A stretch of 12,449 nucleotides of DNA from a virus, in the UHGV virus genome UHGV-0116345, one strand, 5' to 3'. The notes beneath the pieces were generated by a model, which searched no databases, was not told where the DNA came from, and saw only the letters and a list, made by a program, of their open reading frames with translations. Of the stretch, positions 1-11,026 are shown in pieces (the first letter of the stretch is position 1; each line of letters opens with the position of its first letter). The position numbers and the translations under genes are program-made.

Positions 1-7
1 TTGCTCC

Positions 8-35
8 GTGTATTCACTCGTTGGAATGAATACAC
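8..35. repeat. Perfect 9-bp inverted repeat (gtgtattca ... tgaatacac) with 10-nt spacer; possible hairpin downstream of the minus-strand gene ending at 80
   Basis: Read directly: 8-16 gtgtattca is the exact reverse complement of 27-35 tgaatacac. No clear U-tract on either strand, so terminator function is uncertain. Confidence 0.3.
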
Positions 36-79
36 AGTGCAGTGTTTATTCTGTTGTTTATGCCAAAAATAAAGGACGA

Positions 80-703
80 TTATGCGACCTCGGAAGGAAG
101 TCCAATCATCTTATTCAAATCTTCTACCCGTAAAGCAGGAAGTGCTGTACTTGCTTTATCTGCTTCTTTTGGTAGCAACTCTTTGCTTTCAGGCCAAACT
201 TCAATAAGTCGCTTAACTGTTGTGACTGAGTTCAAAGCAGCCCATACATTTGATTCGATATCCTTTTTCTTGGCTTCAAGTTTTTGTTGCAATGCGCAGA
301 TTTCATCAAACCTTTTTGTTATTTCGTGTTCTGCGCTAAACATGCATTTATCTTTGGTCGGAGTAGGGAGCAATATATCTTCGCCGTTGCCGTCTTTCCC
401 ATATGAATACCAGCCAACCCTTCTGCCAGATACAGTCAGATAAATTGAAGTTGAACGGGCATCGCATGAGTAAAATGAACATCCCAGCTTTTCAAGTTCT
501 TCGCTTATAGCCATTAACTTGGATGATAACTGATCCACTTCCTCAGTTTTCTTTTTACCGCCAAACGCAACAACTCTGGCGTCAAGTGCAAGCTGGTTCT
601 TTAACTTTGTTACTTCTTCAAGCTCAGTGAAAACCCCAGATTTAATTAAAGCGTTACGAGCGATTTTCTCTTTCATTCTCGTAGTTAAGCGGATTGATGA
701 CAT
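80..703 (-). CDS. Hypothetical early-left (pL operon) protein, 207 aa, hydrophilic with predicted coiled-coil character; sits at the position lambda uses for ral/sieB-type accessory genes
   Basis: Long ORF in the track (80..763, TTG-initiated). I place the start at ATG 701-703, preceded by GAGAGGA with 6-nt spacing (MSSIRLTTRMKEKIARN...). Same strand and immediately downstream of the N-like gene. No family recognised. Confidence 0.6.
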   Translation of the reverse strand: MSSIRLTTRMKEKIARNALIKSGVFTELEEVTKLKNQLALDARVVAFGGKKKTEEVDQLSSKLMAISEELEKLGCSFYSCDARSTSIYLTVSGRRVGWYSYGKDGNGEDILLPTPTKDKCMFSAEHEITKRFDEICALQQKLEAKKKDIESNVWAALNSVTTVKRLIEVWPESKELLPKEADKASTALPALRVEDLNKMIGLPSEVA

Positions 704-764
704 ATTAATTCCTCTCAAATAAGTGGTTTGCTGCCTAATTTCATTTTCTGGCGACCAACACAAG

Positions 765-1037
765 TCATCTTGCTGTCAGTTGTTTGGATTTCCGGTAGCC
801 TGCCGCGTAAAGAGCTACGTTCGGAAGACAAGTTGAACCTTCATATTTTCTGGTCAACGTTGTCAGAGTTATCACTTCTGCTCTCATTGCTGGTTTGAGC
901 TTGCATTGCAAGACCACTCGTGAAGGGGTTGGCCTGTGTAGCTTGTCGGAGCTGATCGCCTCCTGACTTTGCAGATTTGCGCGACGAGCTCTACGGCGAG
1001 AAGCTGCGGTGCCTTTAAATTCTGTTTTTCTGGACAT
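765..1037 (-). CDS. N: N-like transcription antitermination protein (small basic protein with N-terminal arginine-rich motif), 90 aa
   Basis: ORF in track (765..1109); start refined to ATG 1035-1037 with GGGAGG RBS 5 nt upstream. N-terminus MSRKTEFKGTAASRRRARRANLQ is an arginine-rich motif typical of lambdoid N proteins. It is the first gene downstream of the nutL-like site on the leftward transcript. Call is by position and composition, not sequence identity to lambda N. Confidence 0.55.
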   Translation of the reverse strand: MSRKTEFKGTAASRRRARRANLQSQEAISSDKLHRPTPSRVVLQCKLKPAMRAEVITLTTLTRKYEGSTCLPNVALYAAGYRKSKQLTAR

Positions 1038-1136
1038 GGATTCCTCCCGAATAAACTTTGGCGATGCAATCTCGAAGCTCCTCCTGAGACGGTTGCTTCG
1101 GCATTGCATCCCACAGCTTATGTGGTTGGGTGATCT

Positions 1137-1181
1137 GGCTTTTCAGCCACGTAGTCGAGAGTCGACGTTGTTTAAAGAGCC
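1137..1181 (-). promoter_or_regulatory. nutL-like site: boxA (GGCTCTTTA), interbox hairpin (GTCGA-CTC-TCGAC), boxB (GGCTGAAAAGCC), read on the minus strand
   Basis: Minus-strand reading of 1137-1181 is GGCTCTTTAAACAACGTCGACTCTCGACTACGTGGCTGAAAAGCC. It is co-linear with the nutR-like site at 3817-3862 (shared GCTCTTT, AACAACG, TACGT, GCTGAAAAGC). The boxB loop GAAAA resembles lambda boxB. Confidence 0.6.
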
Positions 1182-1230
1182 TGCCAGTCTGTTCCATTTG
1201 GCTTCCAGCGTCCTGCTGACGGTTAAATAG

Positions 1231-1330
1231 TACGATATGTACTTTACAAGATCAATACAATTTGTTGTAAGTTGGCGTGGTTTTTTATAACGCTTTGTAT
1301 TTAATAGTGTTGTTTTTTAGCGTGGATGTA
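1231..1330 (-). promoter_or_regulatory. OL/pL region: leftward early promoter and operator(s); contains CTTGTAAAGTACATAT (minus-strand reading of 1235-1250), which shares motifs with OR
   Basis: Non-coding AT-rich interval between the terminator at 1441-1470 and nutL/N. One candidate minus-strand -35 TTACAA / 18-nt spacer / -10 TAAAGT. The motif CTTGTA...AAAGTACATAT recurs at OR (3534-3555). Exact promoter and operator boundaries not resolved. Confidence 0.45.
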
Positions 1331-1440
1331 TTGCCTCGGCGATGTAAGGAGAGATCAGAATTGCGTGGTTTAGTGGGTTGCATCTATTTATTTTTCAATA
1401 AATATAATTGGTTATGTGTTTTTAGGTGGGCGAACGTGAG

Positions 1441-1470
1441 GCAAAGAAAACCCGGCGCTGAGGCCGGGTT
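1441..1470 (-). terminator. Rho-independent terminator closing the cI / two-gene cassette transcript
   Basis: Stem cccggc (1451-1456) / gccggg (1463-1468), 6-nt loop, followed on the minus strand by UUUUCUUUG. Lies immediately 3' of the stop of the 250-aa gene (1474-1476). Confidence 0.7.
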
Positions 1471-1473
1471 GTA

Positions 1474-2226
1474 TTATGCTGCAAGTCTCTTAACCCAAGT
1501 CTCTCTTTTGGAGAATGGTAGAACTTGGCTTGATTCATGGAAGAGTAAGGAGAGTTGTTGCATTTGATCACCAATTGCTTCGCTGTCTATAACAACAAAT
1601 CTGTTGTTATACTCCTCACTTGAAGCTTTAAGATCAATTAGTTTCCCAAGCAATGAGTAAGCACTATTCCAGCTTCCTCCGTGTTTCACGCTTGATGTAA
1701 AAACGTATTTAGGTATGTCGGTTTTTATTGTTACAGGGACGGTAATTTGATGTCCACTCAAGCCATATACGTTTTCACGAAGAGAAAGTGCGTCTCTAAG
1801 CTCTGTGTGATATAGATAATCAATAACCATACTTTCAAACTTTTCAGCTTGAACTGGCTGATACCAGTCTAACGACAAAGTTGATGCGAGTATACCAGCT
1901 CTAATTATGTTCGATGTAATCGCACCGACATCCTTTTCTGTTGCCCAAGCAATGATTTCTCCTCGAGCATTGAGTTCTGCGCCTTCTTTAAGCAGTAATT
2001 GTCGTATCTCATCAAGTCGTTTTTTGGTAAGCGAGATCCCTCTTGCCTCCATATTCATTAAGGCATCGCATCTGTCACTAACTAAATACCTACCATTGAC
2101 TTCACGGATAAAGGCACCGACATGCTCTCCATCATCACAGTAAGTGAATGGACTGATAATTCTCAAGGTCTTGCCTATTGGATGGCATTCGAAACCTAGT
2201 TGTGAGATCACTGTTGAGCACATCAT
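1474..2226 (-). CDS. Unknown protein, 250 aa; downstream gene of the two-gene cassette at the rexAB-equivalent locus (candidate phage-exclusion/defence component)
   Basis: ORF in track. Start ATG overlaps the stop of the upstream gene (ATGATG / TGA overlap at 2223-2226), indicating translational coupling. No transmembrane segments and no catalytic motif I can assign. No resemblance to RexA/RexB by recollection. Confidence 0.7.
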   Translation of the reverse strand: MMCSTVISQLGFECHPIGKTLRIISPFTYCDDGEHVGAFIREVNGRYLVSDRCDALMNMEARGISLTKKRLDEIRQLLLKEGAELNARGEIIAWATEKDVGAITSNIIRAGILASTLSLDWYQPVQAEKFESMVIDYLYHTELRDALSLRENVYGLSGHQITVPVTIKTDIPKYVFTSSVKHGGSWNSAYSLLGKLIDLKASSEEYNNRFVVIDSEAIGDQMQQLSLLFHESSQVLPFSKRETWVKRLAA

Positions 2227-2780
2227 ATTCCAAACCCCATTTGCCCCGACTCATCTTCAAGCGGTAAAGGTATTCTCCCAGAGTAAGTTATGTTCAGATG
2301 TTTACAGAAGTAATTCCAATACCCTACCAGGTCATCTGGGTTTATGTCATCTTCGATTGGAAACGCTATTCTATCACTATAGTATCCAGCTTCTTCATAG
2401 TATACATGGTAGTGAGCACCGTAAATGATATCTTGGTACTTCGGATGATCGACCTTGTAACTATTCGTGTGTTTGTCAAAGTGATAGGTATCTACCGCGA
2501 AAACCCTCTTGTTATGATAGAAAGCAATAATATTTATTTTAGGGTAAGAAATCGGGTCATCAGGTTCTGAATCCTGATCTGGTTTCCATTTCAGTTCAAA
2601 CTTTAGCCCTTGTATAGGTATACAATCCTCATCCAAGGGGATGATATGGGCTTGTAGCCACATATCAGAGCGACTTGGTTTCTGTTTCCATTTAACGCCA
2701 GAAAAGTTAACTATTTTTTTACAATAAAGTACTTTATCAACTTCTACTTGGCTTGGCTGATAATCATCTATTTTTGCCAA
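2223..2780 (-). CDS. Unknown protein, 185 aa, acidic and His/Tyr-rich; upstream gene of the two-gene cassette at the rexAB-equivalent locus
   Basis: ORF in track; the first in-frame initiator after the upstream stop is TTG at 2778-2780 (next ATG is 39 codons in), so the start is uncertain. Codon usage is atypical for enterobacteria (about ten ATA Ile codons and several AGA/AGG) and the interval is visibly AT-rich versus flanking phage genes. Function unknown. Confidence 0.65.
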   Translation of the reverse strand: MAKIDDYQPSQVEVDKVLYCKKIVNFSGVKWKQKPSRSDMWLQAHIIPLDEDCIPIQGLKFELKWKPDQDSEPDDPISYPKINIIAFYHNKRVFAVDTYHFDKHTNSYKVDHPKYQDIIYGAHYHVYYEEAGYYSDRIAFPIEDDINPDDLVGYWNYFCKHLNITYSGRIPLPLEDESGQMGFGI

Positions 2781-4276: not shown

Positions 4277-5131
4277 ATGACAAATACAGCAAAAATACTC
4301 AACTTCTGCAGAGGTAACTTTGCCAAACAGGAGCGTAATGTGGCAGATCTCGATGATGGTTACGCCAGACTATCAAATATGCTGCTTGAGGCTTATTCAG
4401 GCGCAGATCTGACCAAGCGACAGTTTAAAGTGCTGCTTGCCATTCTGCGTAAAACCTATGGGTGGAATAAACCAATGGACAGAATCACCGATTCTCAACT
4501 TAGCGAGATTACAAAGTTACCCGTCAAACGGTGCAATGAAGCCAAGTTAGAACTCGTCAGAATGAATATTATCAAGCAGCAAGGCGGCATGTTTGGACCA
4601 AACAAAAACATCTCAGAATGGTGCATCCCTCAAAACGAGGGAAAATCCCCTAAAACGAGGGATAAAACATCCCTCAAATTGGGGGATTGCTATCCCTCAA
4701 AACAGGGGGACACAAAAGACACTATTACAAAAGAAAAAAGAAATAATAAAAACACTATGTCCGAAAGTGTCCGGACGGAGTGTGAAAAATCATCTGACCG
4801 TCACGAAGAAACCGACAAGGCATTCGAGGAAATATTCTGGTGTGCAGGCATGCGGAAAGCCGGGAAAAAAAACGCAGCTTCGGCATTCAGAACACAGTTC
4901 AGGGAATGGCGTAAAACTACCAGGGGTACGGCAAGCGAGTTTGCCACGATGCTGGCAGAAGACATCGCATGCAGGAATGGTAAGCAGTTCGGATTCGACA
5001 GGTTGTTACCATCGAGCTACCTGAACGGTCAGCGCTGGAACGACGAGAAGCCAGAAACTATTCAACCACAATCCAAACCATCATCCGCAATCACCGTATC
5101 GAAAACTGGCTACGTGTTTTTCGACAGGTGA
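4277..5131 (+). CDS. O: Replication initiator O (lambda-like N-terminal ori-binding domain, divergent C-terminal domain), 284 aa
   Basis: N-terminal ~170 aa (MTNTAKILNF.RGNFA.QERNVADLDDGYARLSNMLLEAYSGADLTKRQFKVLLAILRKTYGWNKPMDRITDSQLSEITKLPVKRCNEAKLELVRMNIIKQQGGMFGPNKNISEWCIPQNEGKSPKTRDKTSLKL...) match lambda O as recalled. The C-terminal third differs and the downstream partner is a primase-helicase, not lambda P. Confidence 0.9.
   Translation: MTNTAKILNFCRGNFAKQERNVADLDDGYARLSNMLLEAYSGADLTKRQFKVLLAILRKTYGWNKPMDRITDSQLSEITKLPVKRCNEAKLELVRMNIIKQQGGMFGPNKNISEWCIPQNEGKSPKTRDKTSLKLGDCYPSKQGDTKDTITKEKRNNKNTMSESVRTECEKSSDRHEETDKAFEEIFWCAGMRKAGKKNAASAFRTQFREWRKTTRGTASEFATMLAEDIACRNGKQFGFDRLLPSSYLNGQRWNDEKPETIQPQSKPSSAITVSKTGYVFFDR
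4624..4755. repeat. ori-lambda-type replication origin inside O: four ~19-21-bp iterons (ATCCCTCAAAACGAGGGA-like) followed by an AT-rich unwinding region
   Basis: Iterons read directly at about 4624-4644, 4645-4665, 4669-4688 and 4691-4710, each an imperfect palindrome TCCCTCAAA..GAGGGA. AT-rich tract 4711-4755 (acaaaagaaaaaagaaataataaaaacac). Confidence 0.85.
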
Positions 5132-5134
5132 ACC

Positions 5135-5242
5135 ATGAAATCAAAAATCAAATCGTTACTGGTCGCTGGTTATAACCACGGCTGGTTAAGTATTTCGTTT
5201 GTCGATTTCTGGTTTAAAAATCTCAATCTGAGGGAATCATGA
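5135..5242 (+). CDS. Possible micro-ORF (35 aa, MKSKIKSLLVAGYNHGWLSISFVDFWFKNLNLRES) bridging O and the primase-helicase
   Basis: ATG 5135 is 3 nt after the O stop, with AGGTGA 5 nt upstream; its stop TGA (5240-5242) overlaps the ATG of the next gene. Below the ORF-track length cut-off; coding status unproven. Confidence 0.2.
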   Translation: MKSKIKSLLVAGYNHGWLSISFVDFWFKNLNLRES

Positions 5243-7119
5243 CTCCAAGTGAACTTAGCTACCTGCTTTGGGCGCAGGTTGACAGGGTGGCTCCACACCT
5301 GTTGCCAAACGGCAAGAAAGAGGGGCATGAGTGGGTTGCCGGTAACGTCAACGGTGACAAGGGAAACAGCCTTAAGGTCAACCTTAGCGGCAAGAAAAAA
5401 TGGGCTGATTTCGCTGAGGGAGACGGCGGTGACATGCTTGATTTGTGGATGGCATGTCGTGGAATTAACCTGCATCAGGCTATGCAGGAAGCGAAAGCAT
5501 TTCTCGGTATCAAGGATGACGATCACCATTTCGATGCCAGACGTGAGAAGAAATTCTCCAGACCTGATCGCAAGAAAATCGCCCGCTACGTTACCAGAAC
5601 AGAATCCCATCTTGAGTACCTGCAATCGCGTGGCATATCGCCAGAAATCGTAAAGCGCTACGAGGTTGTCAGCGGCAAGGTGTGGAATGGAGAGCGGGAA
5701 CTGGATGCTCTGGTGATTCCGTACAAACGCGATGGTGAGTTGTTGCAGGTCAAGCGAATCAGCACTGAGCGCCCGGACGGGAAGAAAGTCATTATGGCAG
5801 AAGGTGATTGCGAACCTTGCCTGTTCGGATGGCAGGCTCTGGACGCTGGCGTGAGGGCGGTTGTGCTTTGCGAAGGCGAAATTGATTGTATGAGCTATGC
5901 GCAATACGGCATCTCGGCGTTATCCGTGCCGTTTGGTGGCGGGAAAGGCGCTAAGCAACAGTGGATTGAGTTTGAGTATCACAACCTCGACAGGTTTGAG
6001 GAAATATTCATCTCGATGGACGTTGATGATGTTGGTCGTGAAGCCGCAAGGGAAATCGCAAGCCGACTCGGTGAACATCGTTGCCGTCTTGTTACTCTGC
6101 CGTACAAAGACATCAACGAATGCCTGATGAACGGTGTTACCGAGGATGAAATCTGGCAGTACATCGGCACGGCATCCTACTTCGATCCTGAAGAACTCTA
6201 CAGCGCGCGAGAGTTTTACCAGGACACTATCAACGCTTTCTACGGCAAGCAGCAGTATCTGTTTAATCCACCGTGGGAATCTCTGGCAGATAAATTCCAG
6301 TTCCGTGAGGCAGAGTTGACGCTGGTCAATGGGGTGAACGGTCACGGAAAAACGGAGGTTGTCGGGCATATGGCACTTGAGGCAATGCGTCAGGGTGTGA
6401 AGACGTGCATCGCGTCACTTGAGCTGAAGCCTGGTATTCTCCTTAAGCGCCTTACCCGTCAGGCGACGTGCTGCAAGATGCCGCCAGTGCTGGAAATTGA
6501 CTCTGCATTTAAATTTTATGACGAAAGACTTTGGGTGTTTGGCCTGACCGGAACGGCGAAAGCCGACAGGCTGATCGAAATATTCGACTACGCTCGCCGC
6601 CGATACGGGATCCAGTTATTCATCATCGACAGCCTGATGAAATGTGGCATAGGCGACGATGACTATAACGGGCAGAAGGCGTTTGTTGACTCGATTTGCG
6701 ACTTCAAAAACAAAACAAACTCCCACGTCATTCTCGTTACTCACTCGCGAAAAGGAGACAGCGAAGAAAAACCAACCGGGAAAATGGACGTAAAAGGCTC
6801 TGGAGCGATAACAGACCTGACAGACAACCTTTTCATCATCTGGCGTAACAAGGCTCGCGAGAGAGCGTTACAGAGAGTTCAGAGTGGTGAAAAGATGTCA
6901 GAGAAGGACGAACAGCTACTGGCGTCTCCTGCATCTGTTTTGATGCTTGAAAAACAACGTAACGGCGAAGGTTGGGAAGGTGGTGTCCCGTTGTTCCTTG
7001 ACGAGCAATCGCACCAGTTCCTGCAACTTGAATCAGGATCGCCATATAGCTACATCGCCAATATGCCGAAATCGGAATATGACGAGGCGTGGCGACAGGA
7101 AAACGTGACGGAGTATTAA
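5239..7119 (+). CDS. Bifunctional DNA primase / replicative helicase (TOPRIM primase domain + DnaB/RecA-like ATPase with Walker A GVNGHGKT and Walker B FIIDS), 626 aa
   Basis: ATG 5239 with GAGGGA RBS. TOPRIM-like acidic motifs (VVLCEGEIDCMSYAQ ... ISMDVDDVGREAA). Walker A at LVNGVNGHGKTEV and Walker B at LFIIDSLMK in the C-terminal half. Occupies the position of lambda P. Confidence 0.85.
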   Translation: MTPSELSYLLWAQVDRVAPHLLPNGKKEGHEWVAGNVNGDKGNSLKVNLSGKKKWADFAEGDGGDMLDLWMACRGINLHQAMQEAKAFLGIKDDDHHFDARREKKFSRPDRKKIARYVTRTESHLEYLQSRGISPEIVKRYEVVSGKVWNGERELDALVIPYKRDGELLQVKRISTERPDGKKVIMAEGDCEPCLFGWQALDAGVRAVVLCEGEIDCMSYAQYGISALSVPFGGGKGAKQQWIEFEYHNLDRFEEIFISMDVDDVGREAAREIASRLGEHRCRLVTLPYKDINECLMNGVTEDEIWQYIGTASYFDPEELYSAREFYQDTINAFYGKQQYLFNPPWESLADKFQFREAELTLVNGVNGHGKTEVVGHMALEAMRQGVKTCIASLELKPGILLKRLTRQATCCKMPPVLEIDSAFKFYDERLWVFGLTGTAKADRLIEIFDYARRRYGIQLFIIDSLMKCGIGDDDYNGQKAFVDSICDFKNKTNSHVILVTHSRKGDSEEKPTGKMDVKGSGAITDLTDNLFIIWRNKARERALQRVQSGEKMSEKDEQLLASPASVLMLEKQRNGEGWEGGVPLFLDEQSHQFLQLESGSPYSYIANMPKSEYDEAWRQENVTEY

Positions 7120-8038: not shown

Positions 8039-8562
8039 CTATCAAATCAAATACGCCAGCACACGACAAGGACTGCTGGCAAACGCCGCTTTGGCTTTTT
8101 GATGCACTGGATATTGAGTTTGGATTCTGGCTGGATTCGGCAGCGAGCGACAAAAATGCTCTGTGCGCTCACTGGCTAACTGAGGACGACGACGCGCTCA
8201 ATTCTGAGTGGGTAAGCCACGGTGCAATCTGGAATAACCCACCGTACAGCAATATCAGGCCGTGGGTGGAAAAAGCCGCTGAGCAGTGTATACAACAGCG
8301 ACAGACGGTAGTGATGCTTGTGCCAGAGGATATGTCTGTCGGATGGTTCAGCAAGGCTCTGGAGAGTGTTGACGAAGTTCGTATTATCACTGATGGACGG
8401 ATTAATTTTATCGAACCATCGACAGGGCTGGAGAAGAAGGGAAACAGCAAAGGCTCCATGCTGCTGATTTGGCGACCGTTCATCAGTCCTCGACGGATGT
8501 TTACTACCGTATCCAAAGCGGCATTGATGGCGATCGGGCAGGGCGTCAGGAGGGCTGCATGA
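8035..8562 (+). CDS. Phage DNA N6-adenine methyltransferase (Dam-like, NPPY motif), 175 aa
   Basis: Start ATG 8035 overlaps the ninB stop (ATGA). Motif [14 protein letters not shown] is the catalytic (D/N)PPY motif of N6-adenine MTases. No adjacent restriction endonuclease gene, so this is an orphan MTase. Confidence 0.8.
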
Positions 8563-10272: not shown

Positions 10273-10412
10273 ACAAAGCATTCGAACGATATATGCGCCA
10301 GCGTTATGGCAATCGCTATGACCTGACGCGAGATGTTGAAGGTTTCTACTGTAGTGAAATTGTGAAACGAATGTTTGAAGTTTGGTGTCATTGCAAAGGA
10401 TGGGAGGTCTGA
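10269..10412 (+). CDS. ylcG-like micro-ORF, 47 aa (MNKAFERYMRQRYGNRYDLTRDVEGFYCSEIVKRMFEVWCHCKGWEV)
   Basis: ATG 10269 overlaps the rusA stop (ATGA) and its stop TGA 10410-10412 overlaps the ATG of the Q-like gene (TGATG). This is tight translational coupling in the same arrangement as rusA-ylcG-quuD in DLP12 (recollection). Below the ORF-track length cut-off. Confidence 0.5.
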   Translation: MNKAFERYMRQRYGNRYDLTRDVEGFYCSEIVKRMFEVWCHCKGWEV

Positions 10413-11026
10413 TGCGGCTAACTCCAGTATTCAGCATGGTTAACTTCATTAATGACGCGCACTTTCGCCGCGTATGGAGACACCCGAAGAAAACCATCAA
10501 CTCTAGCCAGAAAGCATGGGTTCATTACATGTTACAGGTATGGGGCAAGGTTAATACCGGAGATTGCTCTCCAGGTGGTGCAATTAACGTTATCGGTCGT
10601 CTGATGATTCGCAGTCAGTGGAGCGATGACAAGGCTAAGCAGATAGAGTCTGTCGTCATGCGCCTGTACGAAGAAGATGGGCTGCGCGGAGATGAGCTAT
10701 ACAAGAAAGCTCGCGAACTGGTCATTCCTCAATCATCGTTTAGCCACATCATCACTCTCGCCAAAGAATCAGATGATGCGGCTTTCGTTGAACGTGTGAT
10801 GGTTAAAACGTTTCACCGTGAAAGCCCTGTCCGCGATGTAGCTATTAAGCGATATTGCAATCGCAATTGCACGCAAGATATAGCCAGGATTATTTCTTAT
10901 ATAACAGGTGCTGATATTCAGTATTGTCGTAAGCGAGTGGTGTGGTGTGAGAAAGTGCTGGAGTCAGAAATGTTTTATGCAATGAAACGAGAATTGGAGA
11001 AAGAATTTCCATTAATAGCGGCCTGA
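10412..11026 (+). CDS. Putative late-gene antiterminator (Q-like), 204 aa
   Basis: Position between rusA/ylcG and the lysis cassette, followed by a promoter-like region and intrinsic terminator (PR'/tR' architecture). Cys-containing C-terminal region (CNRNC...C...C). Start ATG 10412 with GGGAGG upstream (track ORF begins at TTG 10382). Not similar to lambda Q as recalled, so the family is unassigned. Confidence 0.5.
   Translation: MRLTPVFSMVNFINDAHFRRVWRHPKKTINSSQKAWVHYMLQVWGKVNTGDCSPGGAINVIGRLMIRSQWSDDKAKQIESVVMRLYEEDGLRGDELYKKARELVIPQSSFSHIITLAKESDDAAFVERVMVKTFHRESPVRDVAIKRYCNRNCTQDIARIISYITGADIQYCRKRVVWCEKVLESEMFYAMKRELEKEFPLIAA

Follow-up and report, generated by a model that had tools for sequence, protein, structure and literature searches.

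An Nmad5-family gene after N in a lambdoid prophage, with a possible role beside phage replication and recombination

The Nmad5 gene and its setting

The window analysed here, a stretch of 12,449 nucleotides from the virus genome UHGV-0116345, carries near its left end an open reading frame (ORF) for a protein of 207 residues on the minus strand, directly downstream of an N antitermination gene (Table 1). The initial annotation called the product an unknown protein. It is in fact a full-length member of the Nmad5 family ("Nucleotide modification associated domain 5"; Pfam PF18757), already catalogued and not a new entity: residues 4-203 cover positions 1-206 of the 206-position profile at 239.7 bits (E = 4.2e-71; the gathering score is 27 bits), and the protein also matches phrog_1965, described as of "unknown function" (E = 1.1e-81). 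RefSeq labels the identical gene "Nmad5 family putative nucleotide modification protein". The best explanation at present, offered tentatively and as something short of an even bet, is that Nmad5 is a non-catalytic accessory of phage replication and recombination, possibly sensed by host defences.

From the genes that accompany the ORF, the window is the immunity and early region of a lambdoid prophage. To the right of N are genes for a LexA/S24-type cI repressor, cro, cII, an O-type replication gene, and a toprim/DnaB-like primase-helicase; further genes include ninB, a Dam methylase, a KilAC antirepressor, rusA, and a Q-like gene. Over 76% of its length the window is 98.6% identical to an Escherichia coli chromosome. 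The ORF starts 61 nucleotides beyond the N stop codon. Gene order (it follows N immediately, on the same strand) makes it probable that the ORF is transcribed with the early-left genes and stays silent in a lysogen. (A promoter scan of positions 1..1600 found no sigma-70-like promoter; the same scan also missed pL.)

In lambda, the slot after N on the leftward operon holds ea10, ral, and sieB. By the generally known maps, lambda Ral, Ea10, and SieB and P22 Ral and gene 17 share with the ORF both the N-to-cIII map position and an accessory, mosaic character. The ORF protein is unlike these products in showing no similarity to them in a Pfam scan at E <= 1 and, in comparison with SieB, in having no transmembrane segment.

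The ORF itself has the properties first read from its sequence: a leftward gene next to N, a strong ribosome-binding site, and a hydrophilic product rich in lysine (11%) and glutamate (10%), with an isoelectric point of 8.2 and a grand average of hydropathy of -0.34. No transmembrane segment is present in the 207 residues (the highest 19-residue Kyte-Doolittle mean is 0.61), as expected of a protein that is not SieB-like. A longer reading of the ORF, from a TTG start, extends up to position 763 and would give 227 residues. The ATG at 703 is the better choice of start: RefSeq uses it, and translation from it gives the family N-terminus MSSIRLT. A pseudogene or chance ORF was considered and rejected, given conservation over the full length, purifying conservation over hundreds of clusters, and the strong ribosome-binding site.

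Beyond the ORF stop lies an imperfect inverted repeat (Table 1), which a terminator scan does not call and which no T-run follows. In the corresponding prophage of E. coli CE10, a better terminator-like hairpin (GCCCTC..GAGGGC, then TTTTTAT) stands about 100 nucleotides further on, before cIII and outside the window.

The gene is present in 211 of 5426 complete E. coli genomes (about 4%), with a 100% identical copy in CE10 (WP_000095087.1) and other strains, and megablast finds it in 337 phage records at 90-99.6% DNA identity. Carriers include Stx1a- and Stx2a-converting phages, HK542, mEp235, the P22-like Kapi1, and PhiR12 hybrids. The proteins of CE10, Kapi1 (Kapi1_018), HK542, and mEp235 are products of the same gene, 96-100% identical in DNA, of the same length, and in the same position after N. 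(In a preprint on OLD, HK542 appears as a test phage only.) As a separate observation, tblastn matches in Stx2a-converting phages (for example, LC616058; H39-H45) cover only residues 34-207 and fall at two places per record, which suggests a copy that is 5'-truncated or rearranged; the full gene is found in Stx1a phages.

N lies directly upstream in 80 of 80 close IMG/VR loci (33 with the N type of the window and 47 with another), so the lambdoid gene consistently comes first after N. Downstream, the same 80 loci vary: small ORFs are followed by Erf, RecT, SSB, or other recombination modules. The prophage of CE10, which is the best match, reads cI, two cargo genes, N, Nmad5, cIII, kil, a hypothetical gene, a gene for an ATP-binding protein, a second hypothetical gene, and an anti-RecBCD gene, with xis and int at the far end. 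Matches to the 337 phage records break off abruptly, either where the N gene ends (767) or within its 3' end (830), and none of these records carries both this Nmad5 gene and the N/oL region of the window; the two positions mark a boundary at which recombination has joined the immunity and early-left modules. The gene is a mosaic accessory module: its prevalence, the break at the junction with N, and a GC content of 40.7%, against 46.4% for the window, all agree.

Two further parts of the window deserve mention. Between cI and N are two co-directional cargo genes on the minus strand, 2223..2780 (185 residues) and 1474..2226 (250 residues), which sit where lambda has rexA and rexB. The pair matches the PADLOC candidate system PDC-M24 (component B, E = 4.7e-10 over the full length; component A, E = 4.8e-4), with Pfam matches to DUF1828 and, weakly, DUF6978, and is probably a prophage-expressed candidate defence pair. 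CE10 has other genes at this position (DUF6932 and a hypothetical gene). The hairpin that follows the pair (Table 1) could end the cI-cargo operon ahead of the pL/N region. On the plus strand, the replication module consists of an O-type initiator gene (4277..5131) and a single gene for a 626-residue toprim plus DnaB-like primase-helicase (5239..7119), the latter in place of a lambda P-type loader. Where the late antiterminator Q would be expected, the plus strand has a 214-residue ORF (10382..11026) that gave no Pfam match at E <= 1e-3.

Table 1. Coordinates of features in and around the Nmad5 gene (positions in the window)
Feature	Position	Strand	Basis and remarks
Nmad5-family coding sequence, 207 residues plus stop	80..703	-	ORF list, Pfam PF18757, phrog_1965; ATG 703..701, TAA 82..80; 624 nucleotides
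Ribosome-binding site GAGAGGA	710..716	-	Read from the sequence; 6 nucleotides upstream of the ATG at 703
N-terminal helices (predicted), codons 5-49, with basic R5, K11, K21, R43 and the G48-G49 turn	568..691	-	G48 97%, G49 84%
Most conserved block, codons 159-178, SVTTVKRLIEVWPESKELLP	170..229	-	Mean top-residue frequency 0.69, against 0.29-0.50 elsewhere
14-residue stretch SVTTVKRLIEVWPE, codons 159-172	188..229	-	Identical in the ORF protein, Pseudomonas YuA gp15, and N4-like coliphage Pollock gp49
C-terminal tail, codons 188-203, LPALRVEDLNKMIGLP	95..142	-	N197 100%; L196, G201, L202, P203 89-98%
Imperfect inverted repeat, 18-nucleotide arms, 83% complementary	2..41		Repeat search; starts 39 nucleotides downstream of the ORF stop
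N antitermination gene, 90 residues	768..1037 (stop codon 765-767)	-	Pfam N_peptide PF25694, E = 1.5e-32; upstream neighbour of the ORF
Strong intrinsic-terminator-like hairpin	1449..1470	-	8 pairs, 6 of them GC, then a T-run; right after the stop of the 250-residue cargo gene

Conservation and predicted fold

Nmad5 proteins form a large family of stand-alone proteins. An exhaustive HMMER search at E <= 1e-3 collected 867 clusters (at 50% identity), and the best 150 of these are mostly full-length proteins of about 190-220 residues, with some fragments. A profile search of 5.8 billion proteins returned 175 hits; among the 120 of these listed, every one matches PF18757 alone, with no domain fusion, and all but two are about 200-230 residues long, a form that the 207 residues of the ORF protein fit. 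Members occur in lambdoid, N4-like, YuA-like, Dhillonvirus, Jilinvirus, and Vibrio phages.

Conservation was measured over 134 distant representatives. The conserved positions comprise the signature residues R5, L6, G48, G49, G93, T162, L166, W170, P171, E172, E175, L176, P178, P189, L196, N197, G201, and P203, each 84-100% conserved and all present in the ORF protein, together with I14, A18, R43, V153, L188, and L202. The whole family signature is thereby found in the ORF protein: an N-terminal R-L-T, a G-G turn, T..L...WPE..EL.P, and LP......LN...GLP. Conservation peaks at residues 159-180 and 188-204 and is lowest in the central beta region. Within the first peak, the stretch SVTTVKRLIEVWPE is identical in three proteins from very different phages (Table 1) despite an overall identity of about 30% among them. 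Several positions are conserved for basic character: lysine or arginine is found at position 5 in 94% of members, at 11 in 94%, at 21 in 74%, at 43 in 93%, at 164 in 77%, and at 165 in 76%. An acidic residue stands at position 165 in 1% of the family.

What is conserved does not resemble an active site. No conserved set of histidine, cysteine, serine, or aspartate residues was found over the 134 representatives; the conserved residues are glycine, proline, leucine, and tryptophan, along with R5, R43, T162, E172, E175, and N197.

An AlphaFold2 model of the ORF protein, built on 23 homologues, is confident, with a mean pLDDT (predicted local distance difference test) of 85 and a predicted template modelling score of 0.69. 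It predicts three N-terminal helices (8-22, 24-47, and 50-72), a beta hairpin region (86-122), a long helix (127-158), short helices (163-182), and a low-confidence tail. The initial annotation had expected a coiled coil. The long, bundled helices of the model bear out part of that expectation; the beta hairpin insert does not, and the predicted protein is not a plain coiled coil. Mean pLDDT falls to 47-60 in the last three 10-residue blocks. Because the tail (residues 188-203) is conserved yet modelled with low confidence, it is a candidate partner-binding peptide.

The profile and structure searches proposed in the initial annotation named the family by its profile and found no structural relative in the PDB. 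The best Foldseek match to the PDB is flagellin-like (E = 0.29), a likeness that is at most an architectural analogy, in the bundling of terminal helices about a variable insert. A profile search against PDB sequences gave coiled-coil noise alone (E >= 0.08), and Foldseek against BFVD retrieved nothing but Nmad5 proteins that are themselves uncharacterised. When 41 diverse Nmad5 members were scanned permissively against Pfam, no second family recurred and the only matches were scattered coiled-coil ones; an NCBIfam scan of the ORF protein found nothing. As modelled, the fold has no known enzyme relative, and a conserved catalytic set is absent.

Named candidates from lambdoid biology fared no better. 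Ral has no Pfam match at E <= 1 in the ORF protein or the 41 family members, and SieB has none in the ORF protein; no PADLOC defence model matches the ORF protein at E <= 1. The initial annotation had set its idea of an accessory factor against homology to a recombination protein of the early-left operon, such as Bet, Exo, or Gam. Pfam, PDB-profile, and Foldseek searches found no sequence or fold similarity to Bet/RecT/Erf, Exo, Gam, or Abc.

Gene neighbourhoods and the Tmn connection

The company that Nmad5 keeps in other phages suggests what it may do. Fifty-five distant IMG/VR loci were reduced to 30 lineages, and 149 flanking genes were scanned against Pfam and PHROGs. The most frequent Pfam neighbours are DNA_pol_A (4) and the Sak4-like AAA_24 (3), followed by the 5-hydroxymethyldeoxyuridine (5-hmdU) DNA kinase (HMUDK), thymidylate synthase, DnaB-like AAA_25, SNF2, DEAD, and Helicase_C (2 each). 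Single neighbours are RecT, DUF2800, DUF3799, DUF669, DUF5906, UvrD, Dam, C5-methylase, and YfbR. Structural or lysis families account for 6 of the 25 Pfam neighbour families listed. The top PHROG neighbours are DNA polymerase, Sak4-like annealing protein, primase, helicase-primase, helicases, thymidylate synthase, and MazG.

Individual loci repeat the pattern. In one metagenomic locus (L142), a DEAD helicase gene is directly upstream of Nmad5; in another (L144), ThyX is upstream and a DnaQ-like exonuclease downstream, with PolA near. In two more (L143 and L146), a ResIII helicase gene precedes Nmad5, and a DUF3799 PD-(D/E)XK exonuclease gene and then a Sak4-like AAA_24 gene follow it. In these two (L143, 6001..7604; L146, 6001..7598) the Nmad5 and DUF3799 genes overlap by 4 nucleotides or are separated by 2, which suggests that Nmad5 is translationally coupled to a recombination module in two distant lineages. 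Among named phages, Nmad5 stands between the thymidylate synthase and N4 gp42/primase homologues in the N4-like Pollock, just upstream of the O replication gene in Vibrio phage Athena1, after helicase/primase genes in eiAU-183, and directly after a helicase gene in Jilinvirus ECO1230-10. Across phages, then, Nmad5 is encoded within modules for DNA replication, recombination, and nucleotide metabolism. Dhillonvirus is the exception: there, Nmad5 is an opposite-strand insert between head genes.

The only experiments on the family come from Dhillonvirus too. Dhillonvirus escapers of the Tmn defence system carry nmad5 changes, K296E in SMS22 or K216E in SMA8 (PMC11846954). Reverting the nmad5 change restored sensitivity to Tmn, and the change alone gave escape; deletion of nmad5 did not (PMC11846954). 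Wild-type nmad5 could not be cloned and is apparently toxic, and protection of Dhillonvirus against Tmn comes from a separate anti-Tmn gene, not from wild-type Nmad5 (PMC11846954).

The Dhillonvirus proteins (SM_S22 CDS0006 and SMA8 CDS7) resemble the ORF protein over the C-terminal 100 residues (31% identity), with the motifs K-[KR]-L-I-x-x-W-P-E and LN..G.P in common. They differ in length (about 254 residues), in the middle region, and in their location on the opposite strand among head genes rather than in an early operon. K296 of SM_S22 aligns with R165 of the ORF protein (codon at 209-211), within the SVTTVKRLIEVWPE motif. (The annotated 334-residue nmad5 ORF of SM_S22, at 4296..5300 of PP627283, seems over-extended by 80 codons, with a real protein of about 254 residues: the family N-terminus MRLTKDIKNQIL (MRLTKD...) begins at residue 81. 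A start there explains why the two phages number the escape position 296 and 216, and removes an antisense overlap with the head scaffolding gene.)

RIIB offers a functional analogy to Dhillonvirus Nmad5. T2 RIIB, described as an early replisome-associated protein, directly triggers Tmn and is the only proven trigger of that system (PMC13001434, a 2026 preprint). The analogy goes no further than function: T2/T4 RIIB is an early, replisome-linked phage protein, and its mutation leads to escape from Tmn (PMC13001434). RIIB and Nmad5 have no relation in sequence or fold, and whereas RIIB is a proven direct trigger, deletion of Dhillonvirus nmad5 leaves sensitivity to Tmn intact.

Two other leads from the literature were set aside. 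Ksap1, the Dhillonvirus activator of KpAvs2, is an unrelated protein of 74 residues and not Nmad5. The "NMAD" domain reported in defence systems by the DefensePredictor paper is not assigned there to a particular Nmad family and was not used.

Weighing the explanations

How would a non-catalytic accessory work? In the lambdoid case, the N-antiterminated early-left transcript would yield a stand-alone Nmad5 protein, as gene order suggests. This protein may act as a non-enzymatic helical adaptor that cooperates with the proteins of phage DNA replication and recombination: a basic surface (R5, K11, R43, K164, and R165) and the WPE..EL.P / LN..IGLP motif could bind DNA or a conserved partner protein. 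The lambdoid copy, heading an operon of cIII, kil, and recombination genes, would be a dispensable addition. Because it would be an early replication-linked protein, like RIIB, and presumably abundant, Nmad5 could be engaged by host defences such as Tmn. For the lambdoid copy, the non-catalytic adaptor role, the binding of DNA or a partner, the timing of expression, and the link to Tmn are all what we infer from these comparisons.

Several points weigh against this proposal. The neighbourhood evidence is guilt by association, with no single constant partner gene. The lambdoid gene lies far from the O and primase-helicase genes and occurs in about 4% of E. coli genomes, so Nmad5 cannot be a core replication or recombination factor in lambdoid phages. 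The opposite-strand insert among Dhillonvirus head genes looks moron-like, less like a replication gene, and a Dhillonvirus nmad5 deletant still plates in Tmn assays, so that the gene is dispensable there (PMC11846954). The clustering of the conserved basic residues on one surface is deduced from sequence and DSSP assignments only. Finally, a novel enzyme fold would also be compatible with the absence of structural matches.

Of the alternatives, counter-defence or host takeover, the role suggested in the initial annotation, fares best; it is a live rival, though we regard it as rather improbable. In the early stages of infection, Nmad5 would bind a host nuclease or immune sensor to neutralise it, or would decoy it, much as Ral, Gam, or Abc do from the early-left operon. 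The setting of the gene suits this idea, in its accessory slot after N, its mosaicism and low prevalence, and a GC content below that of its surroundings, and so do the scattering of Nmad5 over unrelated phage groups, which suggests horizontal spread, and the moron-like insert in Dhillonvirus. A helical bundle with a conserved flexible tail, if correctly modelled, would serve a protein-binding inhibitor well. The toxicity of the wild-type clone, and escape from Tmn by a lysine-to-glutamate allele but not by deletion, have the look of an inhibitory gain of function (PMC11846954). Against this, neither Pfam, PADLOC, nor Foldseek discloses similarity to known anti-defence proteins or defence models, wild-type Dhillonvirus Nmad5 gives no protection from Tmn where a separate anti-Tmn gene does (PMC11846954), and the neighbours in the 30 lineages are DNA-metabolism genes, not anti-defence islands. 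Moreover, the 14-residue motif, the same in phages of E. coli and Pseudomonas and in an N4-like phage, favours a target that is universal and evolves slowly, because fast-evolving, host-specific immune proteins would not yield such identity across hosts. Since family neighbourhoods point to DNA replication and recombination, and the link to Tmn is indirect, counter-defence is not the best-supported role; the accessory position stands, but no resemblance to Ral or SieB and no PADLOC match ties the protein to anti-restriction or superinfection exclusion.

The family name itself points elsewhere, to base modification. It reportedly goes back to a comparative-genomics prediction that citing papers attribute to Iyer et al. 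2013. On this account Nmad5 would be a component of the modification machinery; it might, for instance, serve post-replicative thymidine hypermodification, or some other nucleotide modification, as a targeting or specificity subunit. The best case for it is found in Pseudomonas phages with hypermodified thymidine (YuA gp15, M6, and SN1_019), which encode members of the same family; SVTTVKRLIEVWPE is identical in YuA gp15. In YuA- and M6-type phages, Nmad5 sits inside the thymidine-hypermodification cluster, as the maps of YuA and MW2 show; its neighbours are gp13 (a putative kinase), gp14 (unannotated), and gp17 (the deoxyuridine hydroxymethylase), and the SN1 announcement names as equivalent neighbours aGPT-Pplase1 and a nucleotide kinase (PMC9476957). 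Thymidylate-synthase homologues also recur as neighbours elsewhere. This setting is not that of the lambdoid gene. The Pseudomonas clusters contain a putative kinase, radical-SAM and pyridoxal-phosphate enzymes, deoxyuridine hydroxymethylase, and aGPT-Pplase (PMC9476957), none of which is found in the lambdoid prophage: a search of the window and the matching CE10 prophage arm for 5-hmdU DNA kinase, aGPT-Pplase, and deoxyuridine hydroxymethylase genes, as for hypermodification genes at large, found none. The window does have a Dam methyltransferase gene (8068..8559); this is of the ordinary nin-region kind and lies in another operon, 7 kb from the ORF. Over the 30 lineages, 5-hmdU DNA kinases make up just 2 of the 149 neighbours, and the modelled fold matches no known enzyme, nor is a catalytic set conserved. 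To our knowledge, hypermodified bases do not occur in lambdoid coliphage DNA. For the copy in this window, a modification role is distinctly unlikely.

Least probable by far is superinfection exclusion, or some other protective function expressed from the prophage: sieB is encoded in the same region of lambda and P22, and the window has other prophage cargo beside cI, but the ORF protein has no transmembrane segment and no SieB or PADLOC match, its gene, directly after and co-directional with N and with no promoter-like site of its own found in 1..1600, should by gene order be silent in a repressed lysogen, and Nmad5 is also present in strictly lytic phages (N4-like, YuA-like, and Dhillonvirus).

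An accessory role in replication and recombination could have wider reach. In its boldest form, which we think doubtful, Nmad5 proteins would be a widespread, unrecognised class of non-enzymatic replication and recombination accessories, misnamed for nucleotide modification, that dock, through their conserved basic surface and C-terminal peptide, on DNA or on a universal partner in the replisome or in recombination and are engaged by the KAP-type Tmn system as T2 RIIB is; the lambdoid copy would tune recombination-dependent replication and also sensitivity to Tmn-like defences.

The name matters in any case. Recent papers speak of a "DNA modification enzyme". For most Nmad5 members that description has no support here, because a minority lie near modification genes, the predicted fold has no enzyme match, and catalytic residues are not conserved; the family name is probably misleading. 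At stake is a family of more than 860 clusters at 50% identity, with a near-invariant C-terminal motif that holds the Tmn-escape position. Should Nmad5 prove to be an accessory of the replisome or of recombination that Tmn senses, it would provide a second genetically tractable handle on how Tmn recognises infection, with HK542, mEp235, and Kapi1 as workable E. coli phages that carry the gene. Moreover, a common "hypothetical" gene of Stx-converting and other lambdoid prophages would then be explained.

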